Assembly (NCBI GenBank): GCA_017409875.1 | Contig: JAFQRW010000008.1 | Span: 181,390 to 245,389 of the forward strand | Origin: Clostridia bacterium | Lineage (GTDB): Bacteria > Bacillota > Clostridia > RGIG6154 | Direction: 5' to 3' | DNA length: 64,000 bases | In this document: positions 25,348 through 64,000 of the stretch, piece after piece | How the letters are laid out: every line of letters begins with the position of its first letter | Numbering within the stretch: position 1 is the stretch's first letter | Notes under the pieces: model-generated | Told to the model about the DNA's origin: nothing | The model's database searches: none | What the model saw: only the letters and a program-made list of their open reading frames with translations | Made by a program: the position numbers and the translations under genes

Positions 25348-27639
25348 GTGGCAATAACATACGAACGAAAAAAACAAAATAATATTTTATATACAATTGT
25401 TGCTACACTTTTAATATGTGCAGTTTTTTTTGCGATGGTTGTATCTTTCTTTATTAAGGCTGAGGGCGATGCTTATGAAATGCTTCATATTCAGACAAAA
25501 CAGATTAAAGACGATCTTACCTTGCAGTTAAAATCAGACAGAGAAAACCTTATTACTATGGCAAACTTTGCGTCAAAGCTCTATGCTGACGGAAAAGGCT
25601 ATGAGCGTATGTTTGATTCCTTTAAGCCTATCGGTTTGTTTTCAAGAATTGGTATACTTAATCCGGACTGCACCTTTATCACAAAGGACGGAGTTTATGA
25701 TTTAAAAGGACAAATTTCATTTGAAGAACAAGCCCTTTTAGGAGAACATGTTACCGGTAGAACTTATAGCTATTCAATGCCCGATGAGCAGGTAGTCCGC
25801 AGCTCTGTTCCGATTCAGGTAAACGGAGAAACTGTTGGCATTATGTATGGTATTATCAATATCGAAACTATCAACGAAAAATACAATAATATGGCAAAAG
25901 AGCTTGATGCTCAGCTTTTTGTTTATGATAAGGAAACAGGAAAATTTATTATAGATACAATAAATGAAAAACCATCTGAACTGTCAAACTTGAAAGACAG
26001 GGAGTATAATGACGGCTATTCATACGAATTGATGGTAAATTCCGACAAAGGTTATTCTTCTTTTAAGTCAATACGTACAGGGGAGAATCTTTATATTCAT
26101 TATTCTATCATTGAAGATTTTAACTGGGGTATTATGCTTGCCCGTTATGAAACTCAGGTGTTTGAGGAAACTCATAGAATATCTCAAAACTTATTTGTTA
26201 TCTTTGGTGTAATCATCTTGATTATGGCAGTTTATCTTGAGTTGATATTAAAAAACGAAAAAAACAGAGCAAAATTAAATTCAGAGTCTTCTGCTATCAG
26301 GCATCTTCTTCTGGAAATAAACAGGCAACATGAAAATATAAATACCGCTTTAAGAAGAATAAAAGAATTTTCAAGTGCCCGTTCCTGCTTCTTTGCAGAT
26401 ACCGACGGAGAAGATTATTACTACATAAAGCCTTCCTTAAAGGATAAATGCTTGTTGGGTGACGAAAGAAAATACTTTATCAGTGAGCTTTTCAGGTATG
26501 CCGCAAACATTCATTCGGATAATTCATCTACCGGATTTATGCAGATTATTCCCAACAGTCACCTTTTAAAAACCAATCCGGAATTGTATCACTTTTTATT
26601 AAATCAAGGCATCAAAGATGTTTCTTTTGCGATTATTGCAGACAAAAACAACCATGTTAGTATCTTAGGTGCGATTAATCCCAAAAAAAGTTATGAAATC
26701 AGAAAACTCGCCAGCGATGTTGTTATTTGCTTTTCTATTGCCATATATAACAAAAAGCATCTTAACAAAACTGAGCTTGCTGCAACAACGGATTCTCTTA
26801 CCGGAGCCTTAAACCGTGTTGCATATAAAAAAGACATTCTCGTTTTTGACGAAGAAAAACCGGAAGATTTTTCCTGCATTTATATTGATGTTAACGAGCT
26901 TCATATCAGGAACAATAAATACGGACACGCCGCAGGCGATGAAATGCTTATCTATATTGCAAACTCCTTAAAGGAAGTGTTCTTTGGCCAGTACATTTAT
27001 CGTATGGGTGGCGATGAATTTTTAGTGTTTGCGAAAAAGATTCCACAAGAAATTATTAAACAGAGCATAGAAACCTTTGTTCAGCAAATAAAAACAAAGG
27101 ACTACAACGTTGCTATTGGTATATCTCACAGAACTCGAAATACAAACAGTGAAGAAATGGTTCGTGAAGCTGAAATCAGAATGTATGAGGCAAAGGCTCA
27201 GTATTATCAGGAAAAAGAAATGAAAAACACCTCGCATATTGATGACAAAGGTTATGTTCATACAAAGACAGGCATACTCGAAATTGATACGATGATTTCT
27301 ATTCTGAAAGAAAATTATAATGGAATATATCGTGTAGACTTAGATACAGACAAAGCACATCGTATTTTGATGCCTGCATACCTTGGTTATAATGAAAATG
27401 AGGAACATTTTTCTAAGCTTTTGATTAAGTATATAGATGATTCTGTTGCACCTGAATTTCACAGAGCAACTATGAACTTTTTGAACTATGATGCTCTTAA
27501 AAGACAACTTTTGGAAGGTAATACTCCCAGAATTACATATAAAAAGACTAACGGAGAAACTGTAATCCTTAGTATTTATAGGTTAAGCAATGAAGAAAAT
27601 TCTGTAAATAATACGCTTTGGGTTTTTGCAAAAGATTAA
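25348..27639 (+). CDS. membrane sensor diguanylate cyclase (periplasmic Cache-like domain, GGDEF domain with intact GGDEF motif, C-terminal extra domain)
   Basis: 763 aa, two TM helices flanking a periplasmic domain of about 250 aa. GGDEF domain has TGALNR ... YRMGGDEFLVFA. GTG start. Confidence 0.8.
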   Translation: MAITYERKKQNNILYTIVATLLICAVFFAMVVSFFIKAEGDAYEMLHIQTKQIKDDLTLQLKSDRENLITMANFASKLYADGKGYERMFDSFKPIGLFSRIGILNPDCTFITKDGVYDLKGQISFEEQALLGEHVTGRTYSYSMPDEQVVRSSVPIQVNGETVGIMYGIINIETINEKYNNMAKELDAQLFVYDKETGKFIIDTINEKPSELSNLKDREYNDGYSYELMVNSDKGYSSFKSIRTGENLYIHYSIIEDFNWGIMLARYETQVFEETHRISQNLFVIFGVIILIMAVYLELILKNEKNRAKLNSESSAIRHLLLEINRQHENINTALRRIKEFSSARSCFFADTDGEDYYYIKPSLKDKCLLGDERKYFISELFRYAANIHSDNSSTGFMQIIPNSHLLKTNPELYHFLLNQGIKDVSFAIIADKNNHVSILGAINPKKSYEIRKLASDVVICFSIAIYNKKHLNKTELAATTDSLTGALNRVAYKKDILVFDEEKPEDFSCIYIDVNELHIRNNKYGHAAGDEMLIYIANSLKEVFFGQYIYRMGGDEFLVFAKKIPQEIIKQSIETFVQQIKTKDYNVAIGISHRTRNTNSEEMVREAEIRMYEAKAQYYQEKEMKNTSHIDDKGYVHTKTGILEIDTMISILKENYNGIYRVDLDTDKAHRILMPAYLGYNENEEHFSKLLIKYIDDSVAPEFHRATMNFLNYDALKRQLLEGNTPRITYKKTNGETVILSIYRLSNEENSVNNTLWVFAKD

Positions 27640-27674: not shown

Positions 27675-27689
27675 TAATAACAAATGAAT

Positions 27690-27806
27690 ATTTAGCAAAA
27701 TCGGCGAAAGCCGGTGACGCAAAGCAAAGAGGCTAAAGCTTATGCCACGCCAGTCCAGCTGCAATGATAAGAGTCTTTCATGGCTTTCTATTGTTGCAGT
27801 TTTTTG
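27690..27806 (+). promoter_or_regulatory. candidate c-di-GMP-I (GEMM) riboswitch with terminator expression platform
   Basis: AGCAAAAUCGGC-GAAA-GCCGGUGACGCAAAGC reproduces the GEMM-I core: GCAAA, a P2 hairpin with GNRA tetraloop, then the near-invariant GACGCAAAGC. A second hairpin region follows (GCUUAU ... AUAAG). Its 3' arm overlaps an intrinsic terminator. Confidence 0.55.
27759..27806 (+). terminator. intrinsic terminator (riboswitch expression platform)
   Basis: CUGCAAUGAUA ... UAUUGUUGCAG stem of 11 bp (two G-U pairs) followed by UUUUUUG. Confidence 0.6.
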
Positions 27807-27822
27807 TTTATAGGAGAATTGT

Positions 27823-28515
27823 ATGAATGTAGTTACAAGAGAAGAAAAGAAATTTTTAATAAGTCTTGAAGAATTTCGGAATAAGTCACATTACCTTGAT
27901 AATCTGCTCATTCAGGATGAACATAACGGCATTGATGGATATATAATTAGGTCGCTCTATTTTGACACAGTTTACGATGATGATTTTTTTGAAAAACTTG
28001 AAGGTACAGAAACAAGGCGGAAGATACGCCTTAGAATTTATGACCCAAAACACGATTTTGCAATGCTGGAAATGAAGCAAAAACAGGGTGCGGCACAGAA
28101 AAAACGTTCACTTAGAATGACGAAAGCCGATGCCGAGGATTTAATCAAAGGCAAATATGAAGTTTTACTGAAATATGAAGAAGATTTTGCAAAAGAGTGC
28201 TACGGACTTATGCATTATAAATGCTACCGACCGAAAACGATTGTTCAGTATAACAGAAAGGCATACATAGCAAAGGAAAATAAAATAAGAATTACCTTTG
28301 ACAATAATATCGTGGCAACAGAAACCAATTTTGATTTGTTTTGCGAAAACCTTGTTATGTATCCTGTTTTAGACAAATTCAATGTTGTTTTAGAAGTGAA
28401 ATTTAACGGATTTTTGCTTGATTATATCAGGCAGTTTATAAACAGCATCAATAAAAGCGAGCTTTCGGTAAGCAAATACGCCTTAGCGAGACAGCAAAGT
28501 TATGCGGAGGTTTAA
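27823..28515 (+). CDS. VTC domain-containing protein (polyphosphate polymerase-like / CYTH-like fold)
   Basis: 230 aa. The pattern YIIRSLYFDT ... RRKIRLRIYD ... LEMK is typical of the bacterial VTC domain that co-occurs with DUF4956 and CotH. Confidence 0.65.
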   Translation: MNVVTREEKKFLISLEEFRNKSHYLDNLLIQDEHNGIDGYIIRSLYFDTVYDDDFFEKLEGTETRRKIRLRIYDPKHDFAMLEMKQKQGAAQKKRSLRMTKADAEDLIKGKYEVLLKYEEDFAKECYGLMHYKCYRPKTIVQYNRKAYIAKENKIRITFDNNIVATETNFDLFCENLVMYPVLDKFNVVLEVKFNGFLLDYIRQFINSINKSELSVSKYALARQQSYAEV

Positions 28516-28521
28516 TAAATT

Positions 28522-30276
28522 ATGAAAAAATGTTTTTGTTTATTGCACACTTTGATAATGCTTGCAACAGCTTTTAGTGTCAGCGCAACTTCTCAAGGCA
28601 GAGCGATTTGGCAGGATCCGGAAAACGTTGTAGTTATCTGTGGCGAAGAAGATGCGGAGCACCAATTCTTCAGAGCCGATACTATAGACGGAGAATATGA
28701 ATATATTGGAAAATCATCTACAGGCACATTTCGTGATGACACGGCAAGCTATCCCGGTACATATTTTTATAAAATAAAAAAATATGATGCATCAGGTGAA
28801 AAAACTTACGAATCAGGTCCGATAAAGCCAGATATTTATCCGCAAGCGCTTTCAAAGGTCAGTGTGATAATGTATCATAATTTTGTGAGCGAGGAAGATG
28901 TTAAGGCGGGAGTGGAATTTGATGAGTATTCCATTAAACCGGAGGATTTTGAGGAAGATTTGCTCTGGCTTAAAAACAATGGATATGTAACAATAACCTC
29001 AGACGATTTGTTAAGGCATCTTGAAGGGAAAAAATCACTGCCGCAAAAGGCGGTTATAATTTCTATAGATGACGGCTCGTGGGGAGTATATACAAATGCA
29101 TATCCGCTTTTGAAAAAATATAATATGAAAGCTGATTTTAACATAATCGGTGCAAATATTGATAAAGCCTGGGAAAACTTAGATTCGGGAGGAACAAGAA
29201 GCGGTGAAAGTGCTCCGTATTGCACATGGGAAGAGCTTGCCCAAATGTTAGATAGCGGAAAAATCAATATATGTTCACATACATACGGACTTCATGTTTA
29301 TGATAAAGAAAAACGAATCGGAATGAGTATGATGGAAGGCGAGACTCCAGAAGATTTTGCAGATATTGTAAAAAAGGATTACAACCTTTCCGTTAGTTGT
29401 ATAGAAGGCTGGACGGGTAAAAAGCCGGAAACAGTAGCTTATCCATATTCAAAAAGAAGTGCCGAGAGCGACAAGCTCGTTCTTGAAAATACAGGATATA
29501 AGATTCTTATGGCAGGAGAAGGCGCAAGAGGTACTGCTGCAAATTATTTTGTTAAAGACTGCCACATCACAAACCAGCTTATGCTTTTAAGCAGACCTTG
29601 TAGAATGGAAGGAACTCCGATTGGAACCTATCTTGAAAGAATAGATAAAAAAGATGGTCAGAACGGAATAAACAAAAGTATAGATTTCATCAAGGTGCAA
29701 AATACCGATGAGATTGCATCGGATTATCAAATATTTGATGATGTTAAAACAAACGCATGGTTTTCGGGAAGTGTGTATTATTCGTATTTAAATAGTTTGA
29801 TGAAAGGCGTAGGCAACAAAGAGTTTGCTCCTGACGATTATATAAACAGAGCGATGGCTGCAACGCTACTTAACAGACTTTCAGGAAATGATGATGCTAA
29901 AACAAATATCATGTTTGGTGATGCAGAAGGCACAGAATGGTGGTATAATTCGGCAAAATGGGCAGCAGAAAACGGAATACTTAATGTCTTTGATGATAAA
30001 AGCTTTAAGCCTGAACAACCAATCAGCAGAGAAAACCTTGCACGGGCAATGTATAATTGCGGAAGGTATTTAAAACTTGATATGTCTGAAAAGGCAGATA
30101 TTACTAAATTTACCGATTATGCAAATATAACTCAGAAAAATAAAGATGCAGTTGCCTGGGCAGTAGCAAAGGGTATTTTTAAAGGTAACGCCGATGGAAC
30201 TTTTAATCCGTCTGGTAATGTAACAAGAGCGGAAATGTCTATGGTACTCAGAAATTGGCTCAGTAAAGGAGAGTAA
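28522..30276 (+). CDS. secreted polysaccharide deacetylase (NodB homology domain) with three C-terminal SLH domains
   Basis: Signal peptide. Deacetylase motifs (ISIDDGSWGVY, CSHTYGLH). C-terminal SLH repeats (e.g. FKGNADGTFNPSGNVTRAEMSMVL). Confidence 0.75.
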   Translation: MKKCFCLLHTLIMLATAFSVSATSQGRAIWQDPENVVVICGEEDAEHQFFRADTIDGEYEYIGKSSTGTFRDDTASYPGTYFYKIKKYDASGEKTYESGPIKPDIYPQALSKVSVIMYHNFVSEEDVKAGVEFDEYSIKPEDFEEDLLWLKNNGYVTITSDDLLRHLEGKKSLPQKAVIISIDDGSWGVYTNAYPLLKKYNMKADFNIIGANIDKAWENLDSGGTRSGESAPYCTWEELAQMLDSGKINICSHTYGLHVYDKEKRIGMSMMEGETPEDFADIVKKDYNLSVSCIEGWTGKKPETVAYPYSKRSAESDKLVLENTGYKILMAGEGARGTAANYFVKDCHITNQLMLLSRPCRMEGTPIGTYLERIDKKDGQNGINKSIDFIKVQNTDEIASDYQIFDDVKTNAWFSGSVYYSYLNSLMKGVGNKEFAPDDYINRAMAATLLNRLSGNDDAKTNIMFGDAEGTEWWYNSAKWAAENGILNVFDDKSFKPEQPISRENLARAMYNCGRYLKLDMSEKADITKFTDYANITQKNKDAVAWAVAKGIFKGNADGTFNPSGNVTRAEMSMVLRNWLSKGE

Positions 30277-54925: not shown

Positions 54926-55112
54926 CTATATTGCAATTTTTTATTGCATATTCCAAAAATGTACCTATTAACTCATTTCGGGAACGGTTTGTAATGTCAG
55001 CAATATGATCAATGCTTTCCACTATTTCGTTCTTTATACGAATAGAAAATGTTTTGTAACCATCATCGCCCTTTAAAGGTTTTTTGGTTATTTTTAAAAT
55101 ATCTTTTTTCAT
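54915..55112 (-). CDS. ribbon-helix-helix (CopG-like) small DNA-binding protein, paralog 1
   Basis: KTFSIRIKNEIVESIDHIADITNRSRNELIGTFLEYAI fits the RHH beta-strand plus two helices with an RSRNELI core. 65 aa from the internal ATG. Confidence 0.5.
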   Translation of the reverse strand: MKKDILKITKKPLKGDDGYKTFSIRIKNEIVESIDHIADITNRSRNELIGTFLEYAIKNCNIEEK

Positions 55113-55129
55113 AATAATTATCCAACATA

Positions 55130-55312
55130 TCAATTTATTTCAACATTATCAACAGAATTTTCAAGAATAATGTTGATTAATTCGTTTCTCGAACGATTGC
55201 TTTTTGAAGATAAATTGTCTATTTTTTTGAGTGTACCATCTTTAATACGAACAGATATAATTTTATATCCGTCTTCGCCCTTTTTGTTTATTTTTATAAT
55301 AGGTTTGTCCAT
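55130..55312 (-). CDS. ribbon-helix-helix (CopG-like) small DNA-binding protein, paralog 2
   Basis: KIISVRIKDGTLKKIDNLSSKSNRSRNELINIILENSV is paralogous to the downstream gene. ATG at 55312 after GAGGTG. Confidence 0.5.
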   Translation of the reverse strand: MDKPIIKINKKGEDGYKIISVRIKDGTLKKIDNLSSKSNRSRNELINIILENSVDNVEIN

Positions 55313-56217: not shown

Positions 56218-58848
56218 ATGAGTAAAAAATTCGTTTACTTATTCTCAGAAGGAGACGCATCAATGCGTGAACTCCTTGGTGGTAAAGGCGCAAACCTTGC
56301 TGAGATGACAAAGATCGGTCTTCCTGTTCCTCAGGGCTTTACTGTTTCAACAGAAGCTTGTACACAGTATTATGAAGATGGCCGTAAAATCAACGCTGAA
56401 ATTCAGGCAGAAATTATGGAAAATATCATAAAGATGGAAGCTATCTGCGGCAAAAAATTTGGCGACAAAGAAAATCCACTTTTGGTATCAGTTCGTTCAG
56501 GTGCAAGAGCATCAATGCCAGGTATGATGGATACAATCTTAAACCTTGGTCTTAATGAAGACGTTGTTGAAACAATGGCTGCTAAAACAGGTAATGCTCG
56601 TTGGGCATGGGACTGCTACAGAAGATTTATTCAGATGTATTCAGACGTTGTTATGGAAGTTGGTAAGAAATACTTTGAACAGCTTATCGACGAAATGAAA
56701 GAAGCTAAAGGCGTTACTCAGGATATCGAACTTGATGCTAACGATTTAAAAGAACTTGCTGCACAGTTTAAAGCAGAATATAAAAACAAAATCGGTAAAG
56801 ACTTCCCGGCTGATCCTAAAGAACAGCTTATGGGTGCTGTTGAAGCCGTTTTCCGTTCATGGGACAACCCAAGAGCAAACGTATACAGAAGAGATAACGA
56901 TATCCCTTATTCATGGGGTACAGCTGTTAACGTACAGATGATGGCATTCGGTAACATGGGTGACGATTGCGGTACAGGTGTTGCGTTTACTCGTGACCCT
57001 GCTACAGGTGAACCCGGTCTTATGGGTGAATTCCTTGTAAACGCACAGGGTGAAGACGTTGTTGCCGGTGTTCGTACTCCTATGCCAATCGCTCAGATGG
57101 CTGAAAAATTCCCAGAAGCATTCGAAGAGTTCAACAAGGTTTGCAAAATCCTTGAAGACCACTACAGAGATATGCAGGATATGGAATTTACAATCGAAAA
57201 CAAAAAGCTTTATATGCTCCAGACAAGAAACGGTAAGAGAACTGCAAAAGCTGCTCTTAAGATTGCTTGTGACTTGGTTGACGAGGGCATGATTGATAAG
57301 AAAAAAGCTGTTGCTATGATCGATCCAAGAAACCTCGATACACTTTTACATCCTCAGTTTGATGCTAAAGCATTAAAAGCTGCTACTCCTATGGGCAGAG
57401 GTCTTGGAGCTTCTCCAGGTGCAGCATGCGGTAAAATTGTATTTACAGCAGAAGATGCTGAAAGCTGGAACGCTAAGGGCGAAAAAGTTATTCTTGTTCG
57501 TTTAGAAACTTCACCTGAAGATATTACAGGTATGAAAGCTTCTCAGGGAATCTTAACCGTTCGTGGTGGTATGACTTCACACGCAGCCGTTGTTGCTCGT
57601 GGTATGGGTACTTGCTGCGTATCAGGTTGTGGCGATATCAATATGGATGAAGAAAATAAGAGATTTACATTAGCAGGCAAAACTTTTGTTGAAGGCGATG
57701 CTATTTCAATCGATGGTTCAACAGGTAACATCTACGATGGTATCATTCCTACAGTTGATGCTGAAATCGCAGGCGAATTCGGCAGAATTATGCAGTGGGC
57801 TGATGAATTCAGAACACTTCAGGTTAGAACAAATGCTGATACTCCTGCTGATGCTAAAAAAGCTCGTGAACTCGGAGCTGAAGGTATCGGTCTTTGCCGT
57901 ACAGAACATATGTTCTTTGAAGCAGACAGAATTGCTGCATTCAGAGAAATGATTTGCTCAGATACAGTTGAAGAAAGAGAAGCAGCGCTCGAAAAAATTC
58001 TTCCATATCAGCAGGGCGACTTTGAAAAACTTTATGAAGCTTTAGAAGGTAATCCTGTTACAATCAGATTCTTAGATCCTCCGCTTCATGAGTTCGTTCC
58101 TACAGAAGAAGCTGATATTGCAGCTCTTGCTAAAGCTCAGGATAAGGCAGTTGAAGATATTAAAGCTATTATTTCTTCACTCCACGAATTTAACCCAATG
58201 ATGGGTCACCGTGGCTGCCGTCTTGCAGTAACATATCCTGAAATTGCAAAAATGCAGACAAGAGCAGTTATCCGTGCTGCTATCAATGTTAAAAAAGCTC
58301 ACGCTGACTGGAATTTAGTTCCTGAAATTATGATTCCTTTAGTTGGCGATATTAAAGAACTTAAGTATGTTAAGGAAGTTGTTGTTGCTACAGCTGATGA
58401 AGAAATCGCTAAAGCAGGCGCAGACCTTAAATACGAAGTTGGTACAATGATCGAAATCCCAAGAGCGTGCCTCACTGCTGATGACATCGCTAAAGAAGCT
58501 GAATTCTTCTGCTTTGGTACAAACGACCTTACTCAGATGACATACGGTTTCTCAAGAGACGATGCTGGTAAGTTCTTAGATGCTTACTATGATGCAAAAA
58601 TCTTTGAAAATGATCCGTTTGCTAAGCTCGACCAGACAGGTGTTGGTAAGCTTATGGAAATGGCTGTTACAATGGGTAAGAAAGTTCGTCCTGAAATGCA
58701 CTGCGGTATCTGCGGTGAACACGGTGGCGACCCTGTTTCAGTTGAGTTCTGCCACAAGATTGGCTTAACTTACGTATCATGCTCACCGTTCAGAGTTCCG
58801 ATTGCTCGCCTTGCTGCTGCTCAGGCTGCAATCAACGACAAAAAATAA
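56218..58848 (+). CDS. ppdK: pyruvate, phosphate dikinase
   Basis: 876 aa, colinear PPDK signature: N-terminal ATP-grasp, central phosphohistidine domain (GGMTSHAAVVARGMG), C-terminal PEP-utilising TIM barrel. Confidence 0.95.
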   Translation: MSKKFVYLFSEGDASMRELLGGKGANLAEMTKIGLPVPQGFTVSTEACTQYYEDGRKINAEIQAEIMENIIKMEAICGKKFGDKENPLLVSVRSGARASMPGMMDTILNLGLNEDVVETMAAKTGNARWAWDCYRRFIQMYSDVVMEVGKKYFEQLIDEMKEAKGVTQDIELDANDLKELAAQFKAEYKNKIGKDFPADPKEQLMGAVEAVFRSWDNPRANVYRRDNDIPYSWGTAVNVQMMAFGNMGDDCGTGVAFTRDPATGEPGLMGEFLVNAQGEDVVAGVRTPMPIAQMAEKFPEAFEEFNKVCKILEDHYRDMQDMEFTIENKKLYMLQTRNGKRTAKAALKIACDLVDEGMIDKKKAVAMIDPRNLDTLLHPQFDAKALKAATPMGRGLGASPGAACGKIVFTAEDAESWNAKGEKVILVRLETSPEDITGMKASQGILTVRGGMTSHAAVVARGMGTCCVSGCGDINMDEENKRFTLAGKTFVEGDAISIDGSTGNIYDGIIPTVDAEIAGEFGRIMQWADEFRTLQVRTNADTPADAKKARELGAEGIGLCRTEHMFFEADRIAAFREMICSDTVEEREAALEKILPYQQGDFEKLYEALEGNPVTIRFLDPPLHEFVPTEEADIAALAKAQDKAVEDIKAIISSLHEFNPMMGHRGCRLAVTYPEIAKMQTRAVIRAAINVKKAHADWNLVPEIMIPLVGDIKELKYVKEVVVATADEEIAKAGADLKYEVGTMIEIPRACLTADDIAKEAEFFCFGTNDLTQMTYGFSRDDAGKFLDAYYDAKIFENDPFAKLDQTGVGKLMEMAVTMGKKVRPEMHCGICGEHGGDPVSVEFCHKIGLTYVSCSPFRVPIARLAAAQAAINDKK

Positions 58849-58864
58849 TAATAACGGTTATTTA

Positions 58865-58897
58865 AAGCGGAAAGCTATTTGGCTTTCCGCTTTTTAT
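58865..58897 (+). terminator. rho-independent terminator after ppdK
   Basis: AAAGCGGAAAGC-tatttg-GCTTTCCGCTTT then TTAT. Confidence 0.8.
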
Positions 58898-58977
58898 ATG
58901 TAAAAAAATGGAATTTGACAAAGATTATTTTAAGTGGTAGAATAAATGTGAGTTATGTAGGAAAAGAAGGGTGAATA

Positions 58978-59295
58978 TTGAGTATTGAATTATCAATGAA
59001 CGACAACAGAAAAAAGCTGGTTGATTGTATGATAAAAGATTTGCCTGCAATCAGAAAACAGCTTAAGTTGTCGCAAACTCAGCTTGGTGAAAGACTTGGA
59101 AAAAAAAGACAGACTATTTCTTCTATTGAGCGTCACTTAATGCCTCTAAAATGGGATACTTTTTTAGCAATTATGATGCTTGTAGAACAAAATCACGATA
59201 TAATAAAGTGCAAGAATCTTGAAATGTATGAAAGCGGTGTAAAGCAGGAAATGTACGTAGAGCTTTACAGAGGAAAAAAACTTGCAAAACTATAA
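58978..59295 (+). CDS. XRE family HTH transcriptional regulator
   Basis: LSQTQLGERLGKKRQTISSIE helix-turn-helix. The start is ambiguous, either TTG at 58978 or ATG at 58996. Confidence 0.55.
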   Translation: MSIELSMNDNRKKLVDCMIKDLPAIRKQLKLSQTQLGERLGKKRQTISSIERHLMPLKWDTFLAIMMLVEQNHDIIKCKNLEMYESGVKQEMYVELYRGKKLAKL

Positions 59296-59882
59296 AGTTG
59301 TTTTAGAATATATTGGAGCTAAGTATAACGGCTGGCAAAAACAGGGAAATAACAAAAACACAATTCAGGGAAAGCTTGAGAATATTTTAGCTGAGCTTTC
59401 AGGTGAACAAGTTGAGATTTATGGCTCGGGCAGAACAGATAAAGGAGTTCATGCTAAATGCCAGGTGGCAAGCTTTAAGCTTGATAAAGAGATGTATTGT
59501 GAGTTTTTAAGAAATTATTTAAACAAATATTTGCTGCTGACATAAAAGTAAATTTGGTCCAAAAAGTCCACCAAAGATTTCATGCAAGACTTAATGCGAA
59601 ATCAAAAACTTATGAATACAAAATTGCAAATGTGGAAAAGCCCTCAGTTTTTGAATGTAAGTATTGCGCTTTTATTGAAGAAAACTCGATTTGTAGCAAA
59701 TGATAAAAGCATCTGAGTATTTTTTGGGCAGACACGATTTTAAAGCATTTTGCTCTAATAAAATATATAAAAAATCAACAGAAAGAGAAATTTTTGACAT
59801 TACTATTTCAAAAAATGATATGGACTTATTTTACTTAACGTTGAATATTAAAAAACGAGACCTTAACGGTCTCGTTTTTTAG
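59282..59882 (+). pseudogene. truA: tRNA pseudouridine38-40 synthase TruA, disrupted (frameshifts + in-frame stop + 3' truncation)
   Basis: TruA-like sequence is spread over three reading frames. The catalytic-region motif GSGRTDKGVHA is intact in the first piece. The second piece has DIKVNLVQKVHQRFHARLNAKSKTYEYKI. An in-frame TAG precedes MIKASEYFLGRHDF. The homology stops about 60 codons short at the spo0A terminator. Confidence 0.65.
59850..59880. terminator. bidirectional terminator (3' end of spo0A)
   Basis: AAAAAACGAGACC-ttaac-GGTCTCGTTTTTT. Confidence 0.75.
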
Positions 59883-60634
59883 CTTGCTTTAAGCTGAAGT
59901 CTTAAACGGTCTGCAATCATTGCGATAAATTCCGAGTTAGTCGGCTTGCCTTTTCCGCTTGCAATAGTGTAGCCGAAAATTCCGTTCAAAACGTCTGTGT
60001 CGCCTCTGTCCCAGGCAACTTCTATTGCGTGTCTTATTGCTCGCTCAACGCGTGAGGCTGTTGTTCCATACTTTTTAGCAACAGTAGGGTATAAGAGCTT
60101 GGTAATAGAGTTTATAACATCCATATTGTCAATAGTCATCATAATAGCTTCTCTTAAATACTGATATCCTTTAATGTGTGCAGGCACGCCTACTTCGTGA
60201 ATTACAGCAGTAACTTTTGTTTCAATATCAGCAAGACCCGATTTTGCAGGAAAACTATCGGAATTTTTGGACTTTTTAAAAATACCTCTGATTCTGTCAA
60301 CAATAATGTCATGTTCTACAGGCTTTAGCATATAGTAGCTTGCACCCGCATCAATAGCTTTTGCAATAATCTTGTCCTGAGCAGCGGCTGAAATTACGAT
60401 GTACTCAGGATTCTTTGGATATTTCTTCTCCATAACTCCAATTCCGTCAAGTTTTGGCATAACAAGGTCCAAAACTACAACATCAGGACTTGTGTTTTTG
60501 ATATATTCCACTGCCTCAAGTCCGTCTGCTGCCACACCAACAACTTTGATATCCTCAAACTTGTCGAAATGTGCTTTTAAAGTTAAAGCGTACTCCTTGT
60601 TATCTTCTGCAATTAATACTCGTATTTTTGACAT
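59879..60634 (-). CDS. spo0A: sporulation transcription factor Spo0A
   Basis: Receiver domain (VLIAEDNKE ... DLVMPKLDG). C-terminal Spo0A-specific DNA-binding domain with the hallmark [15 protein letters not shown]. Confidence 0.9.
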
Positions 60635-60676
60635 TTTTTAACCCCATCCTTTATTGGTAATTTTTGGTATATCCAA

Positions 60677-60705
60677 ATTATACCAAAAATTGGTAAAAAA
60701 TTCAA
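60677..60705 (-). promoter_or_regulatory. sigma-A-type promoter (extended -10) upstream of spo0A
   Basis: Minus strand reads TTGAAT, 17-nt spacer, TGgTATAAT. An 8-bp inverted repeat TTGGTATA/TATACCAA overlaps the -10 and TSS region. Confidence 0.5.
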
Positions 60706-60779
60706 GTGTTTTCTTAAAATTTTTTCAAAATATTTTTTATAGTAGTTTTTAGTGACATAAAAATGCCTATAAATACAGC

Positions 60780-60806
60780 AAACGCACCCTTGTAAAGGTG
60801 CGTTTT
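60780..60806. terminator. terminator hairpin after the PfkB kinase gene
   Basis: AAACGCACCCTT-gtaa-AGGTGCGTTT flanked by T/A-rich runs. Confidence 0.65.
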
Positions 60807-60810
60807 AAAA

Positions 60811-61686
60811 TTAAATATTTTTTAAAAAATCAAGCATATCGGACGGGACTGCATCTTTTTTAGAAACAACATACGAGCTTATTTTCGAGGAAAGTTCAAG
60901 AGAAGTTTGAATATCGGAGCCATTAAAAAAGCTTGTTAGAAATGTTGAACCAAAGCTGTCACCTGCACCAACTGTGGAAACTACGTTGCAGGGCACAGCG
61001 TCTGCATAATAAAACTGATTTTTTGAGCAATCTAACGCAAGGCTTCCGTCTTTGCCAAGAGTTAAAATAATAATTTTAACTTGCTTATACTCACTTGCCA
61101 ACTTTTGCAAAGCTTCTTTGTTATCTATTGTTGTATTAAAAAGCTCATCAGTTACAACCGGTAATTCTTCATCGCTGATTTTTACAATAGTTGCATTTTT
61201 CAAGCAAAACTCAATGCTTGCTTTTGAGTAAAACGGTGGCCTGATATTAAGGTCGGTATATATTTCTTTAAAATTGTTTTGCAAAATTAGTTGTTTTAAA
61301 ACATTTATGTTGTGCTCAGACCTTAATGCAAGAGTTCCAAAAGCCAACACATCAAATTCTTCTTCAAATTTATCAGGGAGTTTTATATAATCATACGATA
61401 CATCTTTTAAAAGATTATAACTTGGCAATGCATTTTCATCTAAAGTAACAAGACATTTACCTGTTTGTTTTTGTAAAATTTTAGATATATATTTTGTGCT
61501 GACTCCAAGAGAGTTAACCTCATTAATTAAATCATTTCCATAACTGTCACGGCCAACTGCAGAAAGCATAAAGGCTTCAGCACCTTGCAAAGATGCATGA
61601 GCTGCTAAATTAAGTGGCGCACCCCCTAGATATTTTGCATCAGGGTAAACATCCCAGAGAATTTCGCCAAACGATAGCATTTTCAC
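60811..61686 (-). CDS. PfkB family carbohydrate kinase (fructokinase-like)
   Basis: GEILWDV ... GGAPLN N-terminus. C-terminal GAGDSF ... ATP-binding motif of ribokinase/PfkB family. Confidence 0.75.
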   Translation of the reverse strand: MKMLSFGEILWDVYPDAKYLGGAPLNLAAHASLQGAEAFMLSAVGRDSYGNDLINEVNSLGVSTKYISKILQKQTGKCLVTLDENALPSYNLLKDVSYDYIKLPDKFEEEFDVLAFGTLALRSEHNINVLKQLILQNNFKEIYTDLNIRPPFYSKASIEFCLKNATIVKISDEELPVVTDELFNTTIDNKEALQKLASEYKQVKIIILTLGKDGSLALDCSKNQFYYADAVPCNVVSTVGAGDSFGSTFLTSFFNGSDIQTSLELSSKISSYVVSKKDAVPSDMLDFLKNI

Positions 61687-61763
61687 AACAAATCACCTCT
61701 TGTTTAATAATAGCACACAAAATAGTAATTATCAAGCATAAGATGCTTTATATTAGTTAAATT

Positions 61764-62597
61764 TTATATTTCACTAAGATCAATTTTAAACAACAATGCG
61801 CCTCTGTTGCCGCCTGCGTAATTTTGTGTTGCAATTATGTAAAGATGATTGTCGTATTCACAAGCAGCAGGATAATGACAACCACTGTGGAAATCTTTAT
61901 CAGTATCAAAAAGCACAATTTGTTTAGTGAAATTTTTACTATTATCATCAGTAAGGTATAATGACACTTTTGTACGATTGATTTTATCGGTATTACAAAC
62001 CAGATAATGTCTGCCGTCAGATAAATCCCCACAATAGAGCTTGCTGGAAATGATTGGAATATCATGAGAGCAAATATCACTCCAGGTTTCTCCATAATCT
62101 TTGGAAATGTAGACTAGCGGAACGTGTGCTTTATCATTTCTGCAAAACATATATAACACGTTTTCTGCACATATTACAGAAATTTCGGGGTGTATTAGTT
62201 CTTTACCGTTTGGTAAATCTCCGTTTTCTGCAATTTTCACAAGATGCCAGTCTGCATCTATTTTTCCACTGTCAGAAATGAGTGCAGCGGGTGTGTTTGG
62301 AAATCCATCCAACTCACCAATTCTTCCGGGAAGCAAAAGTTTTCTGTTTGGCAGGCTTACAACATTTGTATTAAGCTTAAACGGAACGGGCTTTGACCAT
62401 AAAAACTCAAATTTATCAGTCTTTTCATTAAGCACATAAAGGTCTAATGAATGAATGTGATCAGGTGCAACCATTTGATTTACAAACATATAAAGCTTAT
62501 CATCACAGATTCCGTAAACCGGTGGGCAATATAATATTTTTCCGCTTTTGTCATCGCATATTATTTCAAGGTCTGTCCATGTTTTTGCCTTTGTCAT
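61764..62597 (-). CDS. BNR/Asp-box repeat protein, sialidase-like beta-propeller (hypothetical glycosidase)
   Basis: Asp-box-like SKDYGETW. Several beta-rich repeats and no signal peptide. Start taken at the first ATG after the AraC stop. The ORF-track start at 62954 overlaps the AraC gene in another frame. Confidence 0.4.
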   Translation of the reverse strand: MTKAKTWTDLEIICDDKSGKILYCPPVYGICDDKLYMFVNQMVAPDHIHSLDLYVLNEKTDKFEFLWSKPVPFKLNTNVVSLPNRKLLLPGRIGELDGFPNTPAALISDSGKIDADWHLVKIAENGDLPNGKELIHPEISVICAENVLYMFCRNDKAHVPLVYISKDYGETWSDICSHDIPIISSKLYCGDLSDGRHYLVCNTDKINRTKVSLYLTDDNSKNFTKQIVLFDTDKDFHSGCHYPAACEYDNHLYIIATQNYAGGNRGALLFKIDLSEI

Positions 62598-62655
62598 AAG
62601 AACGTCTTGCGCATATAGGAGTGTAACCCTGCAATTCTTTTTCCGGACAGTTATA

Positions 62656-63435
62656 TCACGAAGCGTACAAGCATCCCTTATACTCAATAATTGCAGCTTC
62701 GTGCAAAAACTTAAATGTATCATCGGGTACATGTATGGAAACATATTTATAATATGATGGTATTTGAGTAACTCCATTTTCGGTAAAACGAACACAACCA
62801 AGCTTTGTTGCCATAATAAAATCATCATAGTTATATGAATCATGAATATATATATCAGGGTATTTTGTTCTGAACAACGAGGGAGATATTCCAACATTTT
62901 TTGTAAAAATTTCAGTAAAATAACTTGTGTTATTAAAACCGCACAAGGATGCAATATCAGAAATTTTTTTGTCTGTTTGCAAAAGCAGTCTCATTGACTT
63001 TTCAAGCCTTTTTTTGGTTTTGAATGTATTAATTGAAATATTATATCTGTCTTTAAATATATGACACATATAGTAATAGCTTATATTCAGGTCGGTTGCA
63101 ATTTGCTCAATACTAAAATCTTCAGTAAGGTTATCATCAATGTATGAAACAATTGATTTTATTAAATCATTTTCTTTGTTTTTTATATTTTCTCGTCCTG
63201 TTTTTAAGCAATCAATTATTGATTCAAGAATTTTAATGTCACATTGCTCGTATTTGTAGAATTGTCTTATTAAATTATCCAGATGCGAAGGATTGTAGTG
63301 ACATCTTTCTATACAATCAATTTTGAAGTATTCAAAAAGCTCGGAAATTATATTTTCTTTTTCAATATTTTCTGCAAAAAAGACTGCCAGAGAATGAGTT
63401 TCTTTAAATTTAATATTTATAAATAAAAACCTCCA
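62656..63435 (-). CDS. AraC family transcriptional regulator (start codon unresolved)
   Basis: Dual HTH of the AraC type (EQIATDLNISYYYMCHIFKDRYNISINTFKTKKRLEKSMRLLLQTDKKISDIASLCGFNNTSYFTEIFTKNVGISP). The open frame runs about 115 codons upstream of the first ATG with no ATG/GTG/TTG. A C-terminal extension of about 70 aa follows the HTH. Confidence 0.5.
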   Translation of the reverse strand, partial: WRFLFINIKFKETHSLAVFFAENIEKENIISELFEYFKIDCIERCHYNPSHLDNLIRQFYKYEQCDIKILESIIDCLKTGRENIKNKENDLIKSIVSYIDDNLTEDFSIEQIATDLNISYYYMCHIFKDRYNISINTFKTKKRLEKSMRLLLQTDKKISDIASLCGFNNTSYFTEIFTKNVGISPSLFRTKYPDIYIHDSYNYDDFIMATKLGCVRFTENGVTQIPSYYKYVSIHVPDDTFKFLHEAAIIEYKGCLYAS

Positions 63436-63642
63436 TTACAATAAAATTATATCACAATGGAGGCTTTATATCTATAACATTTTTGCTTGATTTTTATCTT
63501 GATGTTTAATTGGAATCTGTCAACATAAGTTGTCAACGTTGAATCAATTTTAATTTAAATAATTATTTTATTACTTGTTGTGCTTGTGTCAGTGATTTTT
63601 GTGCCTAAAAAATCCTTCTATAAATACAACTGTGCAGAAAAA

Positions 63643-63672
63643 AAGATGATGACATAATCATTATCTTTTTTT
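63643..63672. terminator. terminator hairpin after the partial AraC gene
   Basis: AAGATGATGA-cataa-TCATTATCTT flanked by an A-run and a T-run. Confidence 0.55.
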
Positions 63673-64000
63673 CATTTTTCTATATACAAGGGGTGAACAG
63701 AATTTGTTTTGTTTAAAAGTTTCAGTGAAATACGAGGGGGAAGAAAACCCGGTTTGTGCAGAAATCTCAGAAATGGTTTTATCTGTTTCCAAAAGCAACT
63801 TTTCCGCCTTGCATATTCTAACGAAGTTTAAGTATTTAATAAATGAGGTGTTCATTGCTTCTTTGAAAATTCTGCAGAAATGAGCATTATCTATGTGCAA
63901 AATACTGCTCACATCAGAAAGCGAGAGTTTTTCGCAGCAATGAACATTTATGTACTCTATAACAGGGAGAAACCGTATAAGTTGTTTGTTTTGCAAAAAT
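63661..64000 (-). CDS. AraC family transcriptional regulator, C-terminal HTH domain (5' part beyond window)
   Basis: C-terminal AraC dual-HTH (LSDVSSILHIDNAHFCRIFKEAMNTSFIKYLNFVRICKAEKLLLETDKTISEISAQTGFSSPSYFTETFK). The ORF continues past the window edge. Confidence 0.6.
   Translation of the reverse strand, partial: FLQNKQLIRFLPVIEYINVHCCEKLSLSDVSSILHIDNAHFCRIFKEAMNTSFIKYLNFVRICKAEKLLLETDKTISEISAQTGFSSPSYFTETFKQNKFCSPLVYRKMKKR

Follow-up and report, generated by a model that had tools for sequence, protein, structure and literature searches.

A recently inactivated truA gene, probably an accessory copy, behind an XRE regulator gene in a Clostridia metagenome-assembled genome

Is the broken truA gene that adjoins spo0A in this Clostridia genome a true ruin or an accident of assembly and, if it is a true ruin, was it the gene on which the cell relied for pseudouridine at tRNA positions 38–40, or a spare? 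The DNA analysed here, a stretch of 64 kb that we call the window, belongs to a 248,541-bp contig of a metagenome-assembled genome (MAG) deposited at NCBI under the label ‘Clostridia bacterium’; the names of samples and scaffolds indicate that the metagenomes came from ruminant guts. It is densely coding (92%). Between the gene for pyruvate phosphate dikinase (PPDK) and spo0A lie a small XRE-family regulator gene and some 570 bp of TruA homology scattered among reading frames, in and near which neither Rfam nor tRNA scans found a match. A preliminary description of the window, made from its letters alone, had called this homology a decayed truA, and that name has held: PF01416 matches both of its open fragments, and alignment with intact orthologues reveals four lesions. 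In GenBank each fragment stands as a hypothetical protein of its own, IJE46_03000 (MBQ2897273) and IJE46_03005 (MBQ2897274). The parts of the locus are collected in the table below. The convergent neighbour, spo0A, is in good order; its product matches Pfam Spo0A_C (E 3.6e-46) and Response_reg (E 4.3e-20), and is 92% identical to the corresponding protein of a sister species (locus L001).

Table. The XRE–truA–spo0A region of the window, with the segments and lesions of the truA remnant
Feature	Position	Strand	Evidence and remarks
PPDK gene	56218–58848		upstream of the XRE gene and the truA remnant
PPDK terminator	58864–58893
Promoter-like site, sigma-70 type, TTGACA-17-TAGAAT with extended TG	58915–58943	+	consensus scan, 11/12 matches
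XRE-family HTH gene, intact, 105 aa	58978–59295	+	Pfam HTH_3, E 1.3e-7; NCBI MBQ2897272.1
truA remnant, whole	59282–59851	+	segments A to D
Segment A, codons 1–84, catalytic motif GRTDKGVHA	59282–59533	+	PF01416, TIGR00071, codon alignment with L001 and L013; corresponds to IJE46_03000
Lesion 1, 1-bp deletion in conserved Pro codon of motif YLP(A/F)DI	59534–59535	+	codon alignment
Segment B, 49 codons (ADIKV...CAFIEE), one base shifted relative to segment A	59536–59682	+	tblastn of repaired protein, 96% identity; codon alignment
Lesion 2, 1-bp deletion in Lys/Asn codon after GAA GAA	59683–59684	+	codon alignment
Segment C, 45 codons (LDL*QMIKASEYFLGRHDF...ISKND), third frame	59685–59819	+	PF01416, codon alignment
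Lesion 3, in-frame TAG nonsense codon	59694–59696	+	L001 has TTA (Leu), L013 AAC (Asn)
Lesion 4, internal deletion junction	59820–59821	+	protein and codon alignments with L001 and L013
Segment D, native last nine codons GLILLNVEY and native stop TAA, further frame	59822–59851	+	matches GLTLLNVEY* (L013) and GLTLLNVTY* (L001)
Intrinsic terminator hairpin, bidirectional, common to truA remnant and spo0A	59848–59882		terminator scan, RNA fold
spo0A, intact, 251 aa	59879–60634	−	convergent neighbour, outside the pseudogene; NCBI MBQ2897275.1

The lesions were called by codon alignment with the two closest intact orthologues, that of the sister species (locus L001, protein P0001) and that of a second relative (locus L013, protein P0002). 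The preliminary description had split the homology over several reading frames, with frameshifts near 59540 and 59680 and an in-frame TAG at about 59692, and in all of this it came close. When the protein is conceptually repaired and searched against the window by tblastn, it is recovered in three consecutive frames at 96–99% identity. The first frameshift is the single-base deletion of lesion 1, and it leads to a stop at 59543–59545, such that the ORF containing segment A spans 87 codons (59282–59545; PF01416, E 8e-9). Here the window reads TTG C-T GCT GAC, where L013 has CTT CCT GCC GAT and L001 has CTT CCG TTT GAT. The second frameshift is the single-base deletion of lesion 2, where a run of four A ends (GAA GAA AA- CTC GAT, against GAA GAA AAG CTT GAC in L001). 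The TAG lies two bases from where it had been placed, at a codon that specifies Leu or Asn in the intact orthologues. Just beyond it, an ATG at 59700 opens a frame of 60 codons that ends at 59882; this is IJE46_03005 (PF01416, E 1e-6), and it runs out of frame across the last truA codons and the terminator.

Lesion 4 had been read differently, as homology that gives out about 60 codons before a normal C-terminus, at the spo0A terminator. The gene is in fact not truncated, but hollowed: the loss is internal, and the native end survives beyond it, as GGA CTT ATT TTA CTT AAC GTT GAA TAT TAA, placing the end of the remnant at 59851 and not at 59882. Two nucleotides stand in place of 56 orthologue codons (168 nt), which leaves the gene 166 bp shorter on balance and shifts its frame. 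No microhomology was evident when the junction was searched by eye. With the missing block went the motif GxGFLxxMVR, including the residue that aligns with Arg205 of E. coli TruA, a correspondence made by way of the alignment of P0001 to the E. coli enzyme (2NQP/1DJ0). In the E. coli enzyme this arginine has a catalytic role.

P0001 and E. coli TruA can be aligned over their full lengths (E 1e-37; PDB 2NQP, 1DJ0), and through this alignment the catalytic Asp motif retained in segment A, GSGRTDKGVHA, lines up with that of E. coli. Against TIGR00071, for which the cut-off is 142.85 bits, intact P0001 scores 202 bits, and the two ORFs of the window fall below the line, the one of 87 aa at 76.8 bits and the one of 60 aa at 24.6. 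Repairing the sequence on paper raises the score to 151.5 bits, over profile positions 4–175 of 228 only. Where a TruA ORF of some 245 codons would be expected, the longest in the window has 87. Among 5.8 billion proteins, P0001 is the intact homologue that comes closest to the repaired protein, at 78% identity (its called length is 254 aa), and P0002 is next (73%); nothing in that collection exceeds 78%, and neither an intact nor a half-broken allele was seen in it. The locus of P0001 keeps the gene order of the window, PPDK–XRE–truA–spo0A. At that of P0002 only the XRE–truA pair is visible, the contig of 2 kb being too short to display more. The window thus shares the XRE–truA pairing with both intact loci, and carries its lesions in a gene that both have kept whole. 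The remnant is, to judge by these alignments, a non-functional pseudogene with four disabling lesions, each independent of the others. At most an 87-residue N-terminal fragment could be made from it, for which the two-domain TruA fold would be out of reach, and we conclude that this copy, as predicted, cannot be an active enzyme.

One might ask, even so, whether the gene works in spite of its lesions, by programmed frameshifting, by read-through of the stop, or as a split enzyme put together from the 87-aa and 60-aa fragments. It retains its promoter-like site and ribosome-binding site, its start codon and terminator, and the catalytic Asp motif. But to read it to the end, a ribosome would have to shift frame by +1 twice, pass the TAG and change frame once more, and even then 56 residues, the GFLxxMVR core among them, would be missing from the product. 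TGA, TAG and TAA all act as stops in the long ORFs of the window, and no relative has any such arrangement. We regard a working gene as scarcely credible. An alternative genetic code, with TGA or TAG as sense, was considered separately and ruled out, all three stops being used to end long ORFs in the window.

Assembly errors were another matter, and the preliminary description had raised them as an alternative. The source is a metagenome-assembled genome, and lesion 2 sits at the end of a short A-run, as might be expected if the real gene were intact and the lesions were artefacts of sequencing or assembly. Lesion 1 (CC to C) lies outside any homopolymer run, however, and neither a TAG substitution nor a deletion of 166 bp is a homopolymer error, a read error of the indel type or the kind of error that short-read assembly makes. 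The damage also recurs. The exact 87-residue product is also encoded in the ENA assemblies ERZ27256764, ERZ27256804, ERZ28019354, ERZ28653927 and ERZ28653896, and in the Logan assembly SRR12529394. Six contigs from several samples, ENA and Logan assemblies in addition to the NCBI MAG, match the window and have every lesion. One of them (L007) agrees with the window without mismatch across 10,719 bp, and four (L009–L012) do so over their whole lengths. Contig names imply more than one assembler (MEGAHIT-style k141 names, scaffold names of another project, and Logan), although some of these assemblies may share a sequencing project or reads with the MAG, and the independent data sets are fewer than the contigs. 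Four lesions repeated at zero mismatches in different samples and by different assemblers, together with a protein collection in which no intact allele occurs, make an artefact very improbable, and at the level of assemblies refute it. Inactivation of this truA appears, from the contigs at hand, to be fixed in the species.

The sixth contig, L008, is the same as the window across the whole remnant and as far as 59968, and diverges beyond that point, inside spo0A. Contig L010 stops at the very same position. The pattern suggests either a strain-level variant or a fork in the assembly graph within spo0A; L008 may represent a different strain background.

How long ago did the gene die? Pseudogenes that have drifted for long periods should display it, and this one does not. 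On the branch leading to the window dN/dS is 0.09, against 0.06–0.13 in the intact lineages, rough ratios all, since dS is saturated (1.5–1.8, three species). At 37 columns that are conserved in at least 97% of 119 intact homologues and are present in the remnant, the window has changed at one (T24N); intact orthologues have changed at none or one of the same columns. Old decay is rejected on both counts, neither a raised dN/dS nor a loss of conserved residues having been found. Because the remnant is otherwise barely degraded, the inactivation is best placed late: the gene was constrained for nearly the whole of its history, and was inactivated recently.

The company that truA keeps bears on what kind of truA it was. 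The XRE gene ends 14 bp inside truA—the last 14 bp of the one overlap the start of the other—and the start codon of truA is a TTG, which follows a GAGG ribosome-binding site at a distance of eight bases. The same 14-bp overlap is found in L013, and in L001 as well if its truA starts at the equivalent TTG. At two further loci, L095 and L096, the XRE/truA junction is alike nearly base for base, the TruA proteins being 71–72% identical to that of the window, and the XRE proteins 70–73% (88% for the sister species at L001). The flanks of these two loci are different: an acetyltransferase gene lies upstream in L095 and a GH3 glycosidase gene downstream in both, and neither has PPDK or spo0A at hand. 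A conserved pair in changing surroundings implies a two-gene unit that moves between contexts. In the window, the strong promoter-like site that follows directly upon the PPDK terminator, upstream of the XRE gene, is likely to be the promoter of the XRE–truA transcript, and the hairpin at the other end has 15 pairs with flanking A and T runs (–19.2 kcal/mol, z = –7.2). In this species the XRE half of the unit is, as its ORF predicts, intact, and the truA half dead. The XRE protein has weak matches, below cut-off, to HTH families of the antitoxin type (MqsA, HipB). The coupling of a tRNA pseudouridine synthase to an XRE regulator, in an overlapping unit as well conserved as this, deserves notice.

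Was this the housekeeping truA? The preliminary description assumed so, noting that a free-living Firmicute normally keeps the gene intact; the premise is probably wrong, given the conserved XRE–truA unit and a clade that never occupies the position ecfT–truA–rplM–rpsI. When the repaired protein was scanned against one genome per GTDB species, 80 loci were returned, the best of them matching at 73%. The species of the window is absent from that set, and each match comes from a different genome, so the scan yields no pair of paralogues from one genome. Of the loci with at least 44% identity, 59 in number, none has rplM or rpsI near truA in the flanks that were fetched; their neighbours form many unrelated clusters (FHA–FtsW–PBP2, DapF–FbpA, LuxS and an aminopeptidase, for example). 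At ten loci with identities of 43% or less, truA lies directly upstream of rplM–rpsI (L072, L073, L076–L078, L080, L082, L084, L087 and L090). These include Clostridium nitritogenes (L072) and a Clostridia MAG (L076), as well as several labelled Bacilli or Erysipelotrichaceae.

Species of Clostridium occur on both sides of this divide, that is, with truA in the ribosomal cluster and with truA elsewhere, in what we call orphan context. One orphan-context copy lies in the complete genome of Clostridium sp. FAM 1755 (NZ_CP175919.1, L054). Another, that of C. sporogenes, shares 39% identity with the C. nitritogenes copy from the ribosomal cluster, and 50–53% with orphan-context copies from Lachnospiraceae. 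In a neighbour-joining tree, which carries no support values, the orphan-context copies all fall into one clade and the rplM-adjacent copies all fall outside it; identities are 36–47% between the clades and 42–56% within the orphan clade, which is not far above. Because the clade is never found beside rplM–rpsI, because its context varies, and because C. difficile provides the precedent of a truA2, the window gene was probably an accessory paralogue and not the housekeeping truA. A housekeeping truA would then be present elsewhere in the genome, which we consider highly probable. Of the explanations first offered, a second copy elsewhere seems more likely than tolerance of the loss.

Accessory need not mean idle. 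At the other genome loci of the orphan clade that could be judged, the gene matches in one unbroken stretch; the exceptions are a copy that stops where its contig does and another that lacks some 30 residues. A search among these loci for other broken copies found no recurrent decay. Such genes would seem normally to be under selection and not generally disposable, and may do something that the housekeeping copy does not.

The contrary reading is that the window gene was the only truA, and that the tRNAs of the species now go without pseudouridine at positions 38–40, a lack that it tolerates. The repaired protein finds no second truA by tblastn anywhere in the 64-kb window, nor is there another in the window and fetched flanks together (about 84 kb in all), and the left flank, some 6 kb beyond the window, has no ribosomal genes. 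Sister species keep the gene intact under purifying selection. A search of the protein collection with the ribosomal-cluster TruA of C. nitritogenes (L072) favours neither reading: the 120 matches listed all belong to Clostridium sensu stricto (among them baratii, thermobutyricum and paraputrificum), and no species of the orphan-context set is among them. Loss can, moreover, be survived: E. coli truA is dispensable, the Keio deletion being viable (bioRxiv 10.1101/2024.11.12.622971), and some Mollicutes, namely the Hominis sub-group and the hemoplasmas, have lost truA in nature (PMC4014445). Each of these last two points cuts both ways. Among tRNA modification genes, it is truA whose deletion in E. 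coli has the most negative genetic interactions (same source), and natural loss is documented only in parasites with reduced genomes (PMC4014445). A clade that moves between contexts, and is never found in the ribosomal-cluster position, is also a poor candidate for an only copy; ribosomal-cluster copies do occur in Clostridia (L072, L076), and C. difficile has its extra truA2 (PMC9210968). We consider it unlikely that the window gene stood alone. The fullest form of that idea, in which the XRE–truA pair was the sole source of pseudouridine 38–40 in the lineage, and the species is now a natural truA-null of normal genome size with unmodified anticodon stems, is a shade less likely again. In a weaker variant, a translationally coupled XRE–TruA would have had some specialised role, beyond that of the housekeeping enzyme, which has here been given up.

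Other parts of the window have their own irregularities. Two genes beyond spo0A, a BNR_2 (sialidase-like) gene on the minus strand (61764–62811) also looks broken. It has lesions at 62656–62658 and near 62600, and the frame of ORF 62656–63069 contains its first 52 codons. A TGA takes the place of an expected Trp (CLYAS*YNCPEKE), and an extra A in an A-run splits the Asp-box S-Y-D-K-G-K-T-W. With both lesions repaired, the Pfam match covers profile positions 3–272 instead of 28–272, and scores 82.9 bits instead of 78.8. The independent contig L007 has the identical broken sequence. Next to it, at about 62860–63430 on the minus strand, is the remnant of an AraC-type regulator gene: stops interrupt the N-terminal sensor domain, and HTH_18 is complete only if an in-frame stretch without a start, upstream of the ATG at 63069, is included. 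The AraC and truA remnants are the only two non-coding gaps in the window that exceed 550 bp. Synteny with the sister species (L001 6806–12765 compared with window 59879–64000) stops immediately after spo0A. There, the order is spo0A–spoIVB–hpf–RNase R–secG; here, it is spo0A–pfkB–BNR_2 remnant–araC remnant–araC, followed on contig L007 by GH20. Homologues of spoIVB, hpf, rnr and secG were found nowhere in the window.

Further upstream, a c-di-GMP-I riboswitch (27684–27766, plus strand; Rfam RF01051, 57.7 bits, E 1e-8) follows closely on a gene for a GGDEF diguanylate cyclase (25348–27639), and directly precedes a VTC-domain ORF (27823–28515) and an SLH/polysaccharide-deacetylase ORF (28522–30276). 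Two tandem ORFs of about 60 codons (54927–55312, minus strand) are paralogues of one another without a match in Pfam; they are 90% and 50% identical to a single 60-aa ORF of the sister species (L001 1421–1603).

Taken as a whole, the explanation that we find probable is of a recent, non-functional remnant of an accessory truA, with a housekeeping copy located elsewhere in the genome. The ancestral gene would have been the second cistron of an XRE–truA operon, as it is in related species. Two single-base deletions, a nonsense substitution and a deletion of 166 bp would have killed it, leaving XRE, promoter-like site and terminator intact. The housekeeping truA would lie at some distance, typically in the arrangement ecfT–truA–rplM–rpsI, and if it is indeed present, positions 38–40 would still be modified and the loss would cost little. 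The whole would then be ordinary gene decay, most likely of a spare copy. Its lesson is that Clostridia, which usually keep this TruA clade of copies outside the ribosomal cluster whole, can part with it although nothing in the neighbourhood visibly makes good the loss. The main practical value is in annotation: IJE46_03000 and IJE46_03005 should be annotated as one truA pseudogene. Should the genome turn out to have no other truA, the case would be of moderate interest for tRNA-modification biology, and would resemble the truA deletion of E. coli and the natural loss in Mollicutes.

Known systems offer four comparisons. E. coli TruA (HisT), the tRNA pseudouridine(38–40) synthase, has the catalytic GRTD–GVHA motif, and so does the remnant; the window copy differs from it in lacking the MVR (Arg205) region, in having four lesions, and in being reduced to ORFs below the TIGR00071 cut-off. 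The Mollicutes supply a precedent for the loss of TruA in a lineage derived from Firmicutes, but they lost their sole copy entirely, as parasites with strongly reduced genomes, whereas the window, at its coding density of 92%, has probably lost an accessory copy. The truA copies of the ribosomal cluster belong to the same enzyme family; unlike them, the window gene and its 59 closer homologues are not beside rplM or rpsI, and are only 36–43% identical to them. The fourth is truA2 (cd630_17840) of C. difficile, the last gene of the walA–walR–walK–truA2 operon, described by its authors as the gene of a non-essential tRNA modification enzyme (PMC9210968). There, as in the window, truA lies outside the ribosomal cluster and closes an operon whose first member or members are regulator genes. 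The likeness is one of context, and the differences are plain: truA2 is intact, and its partners are WalRK, where that of the window gene is XRE.
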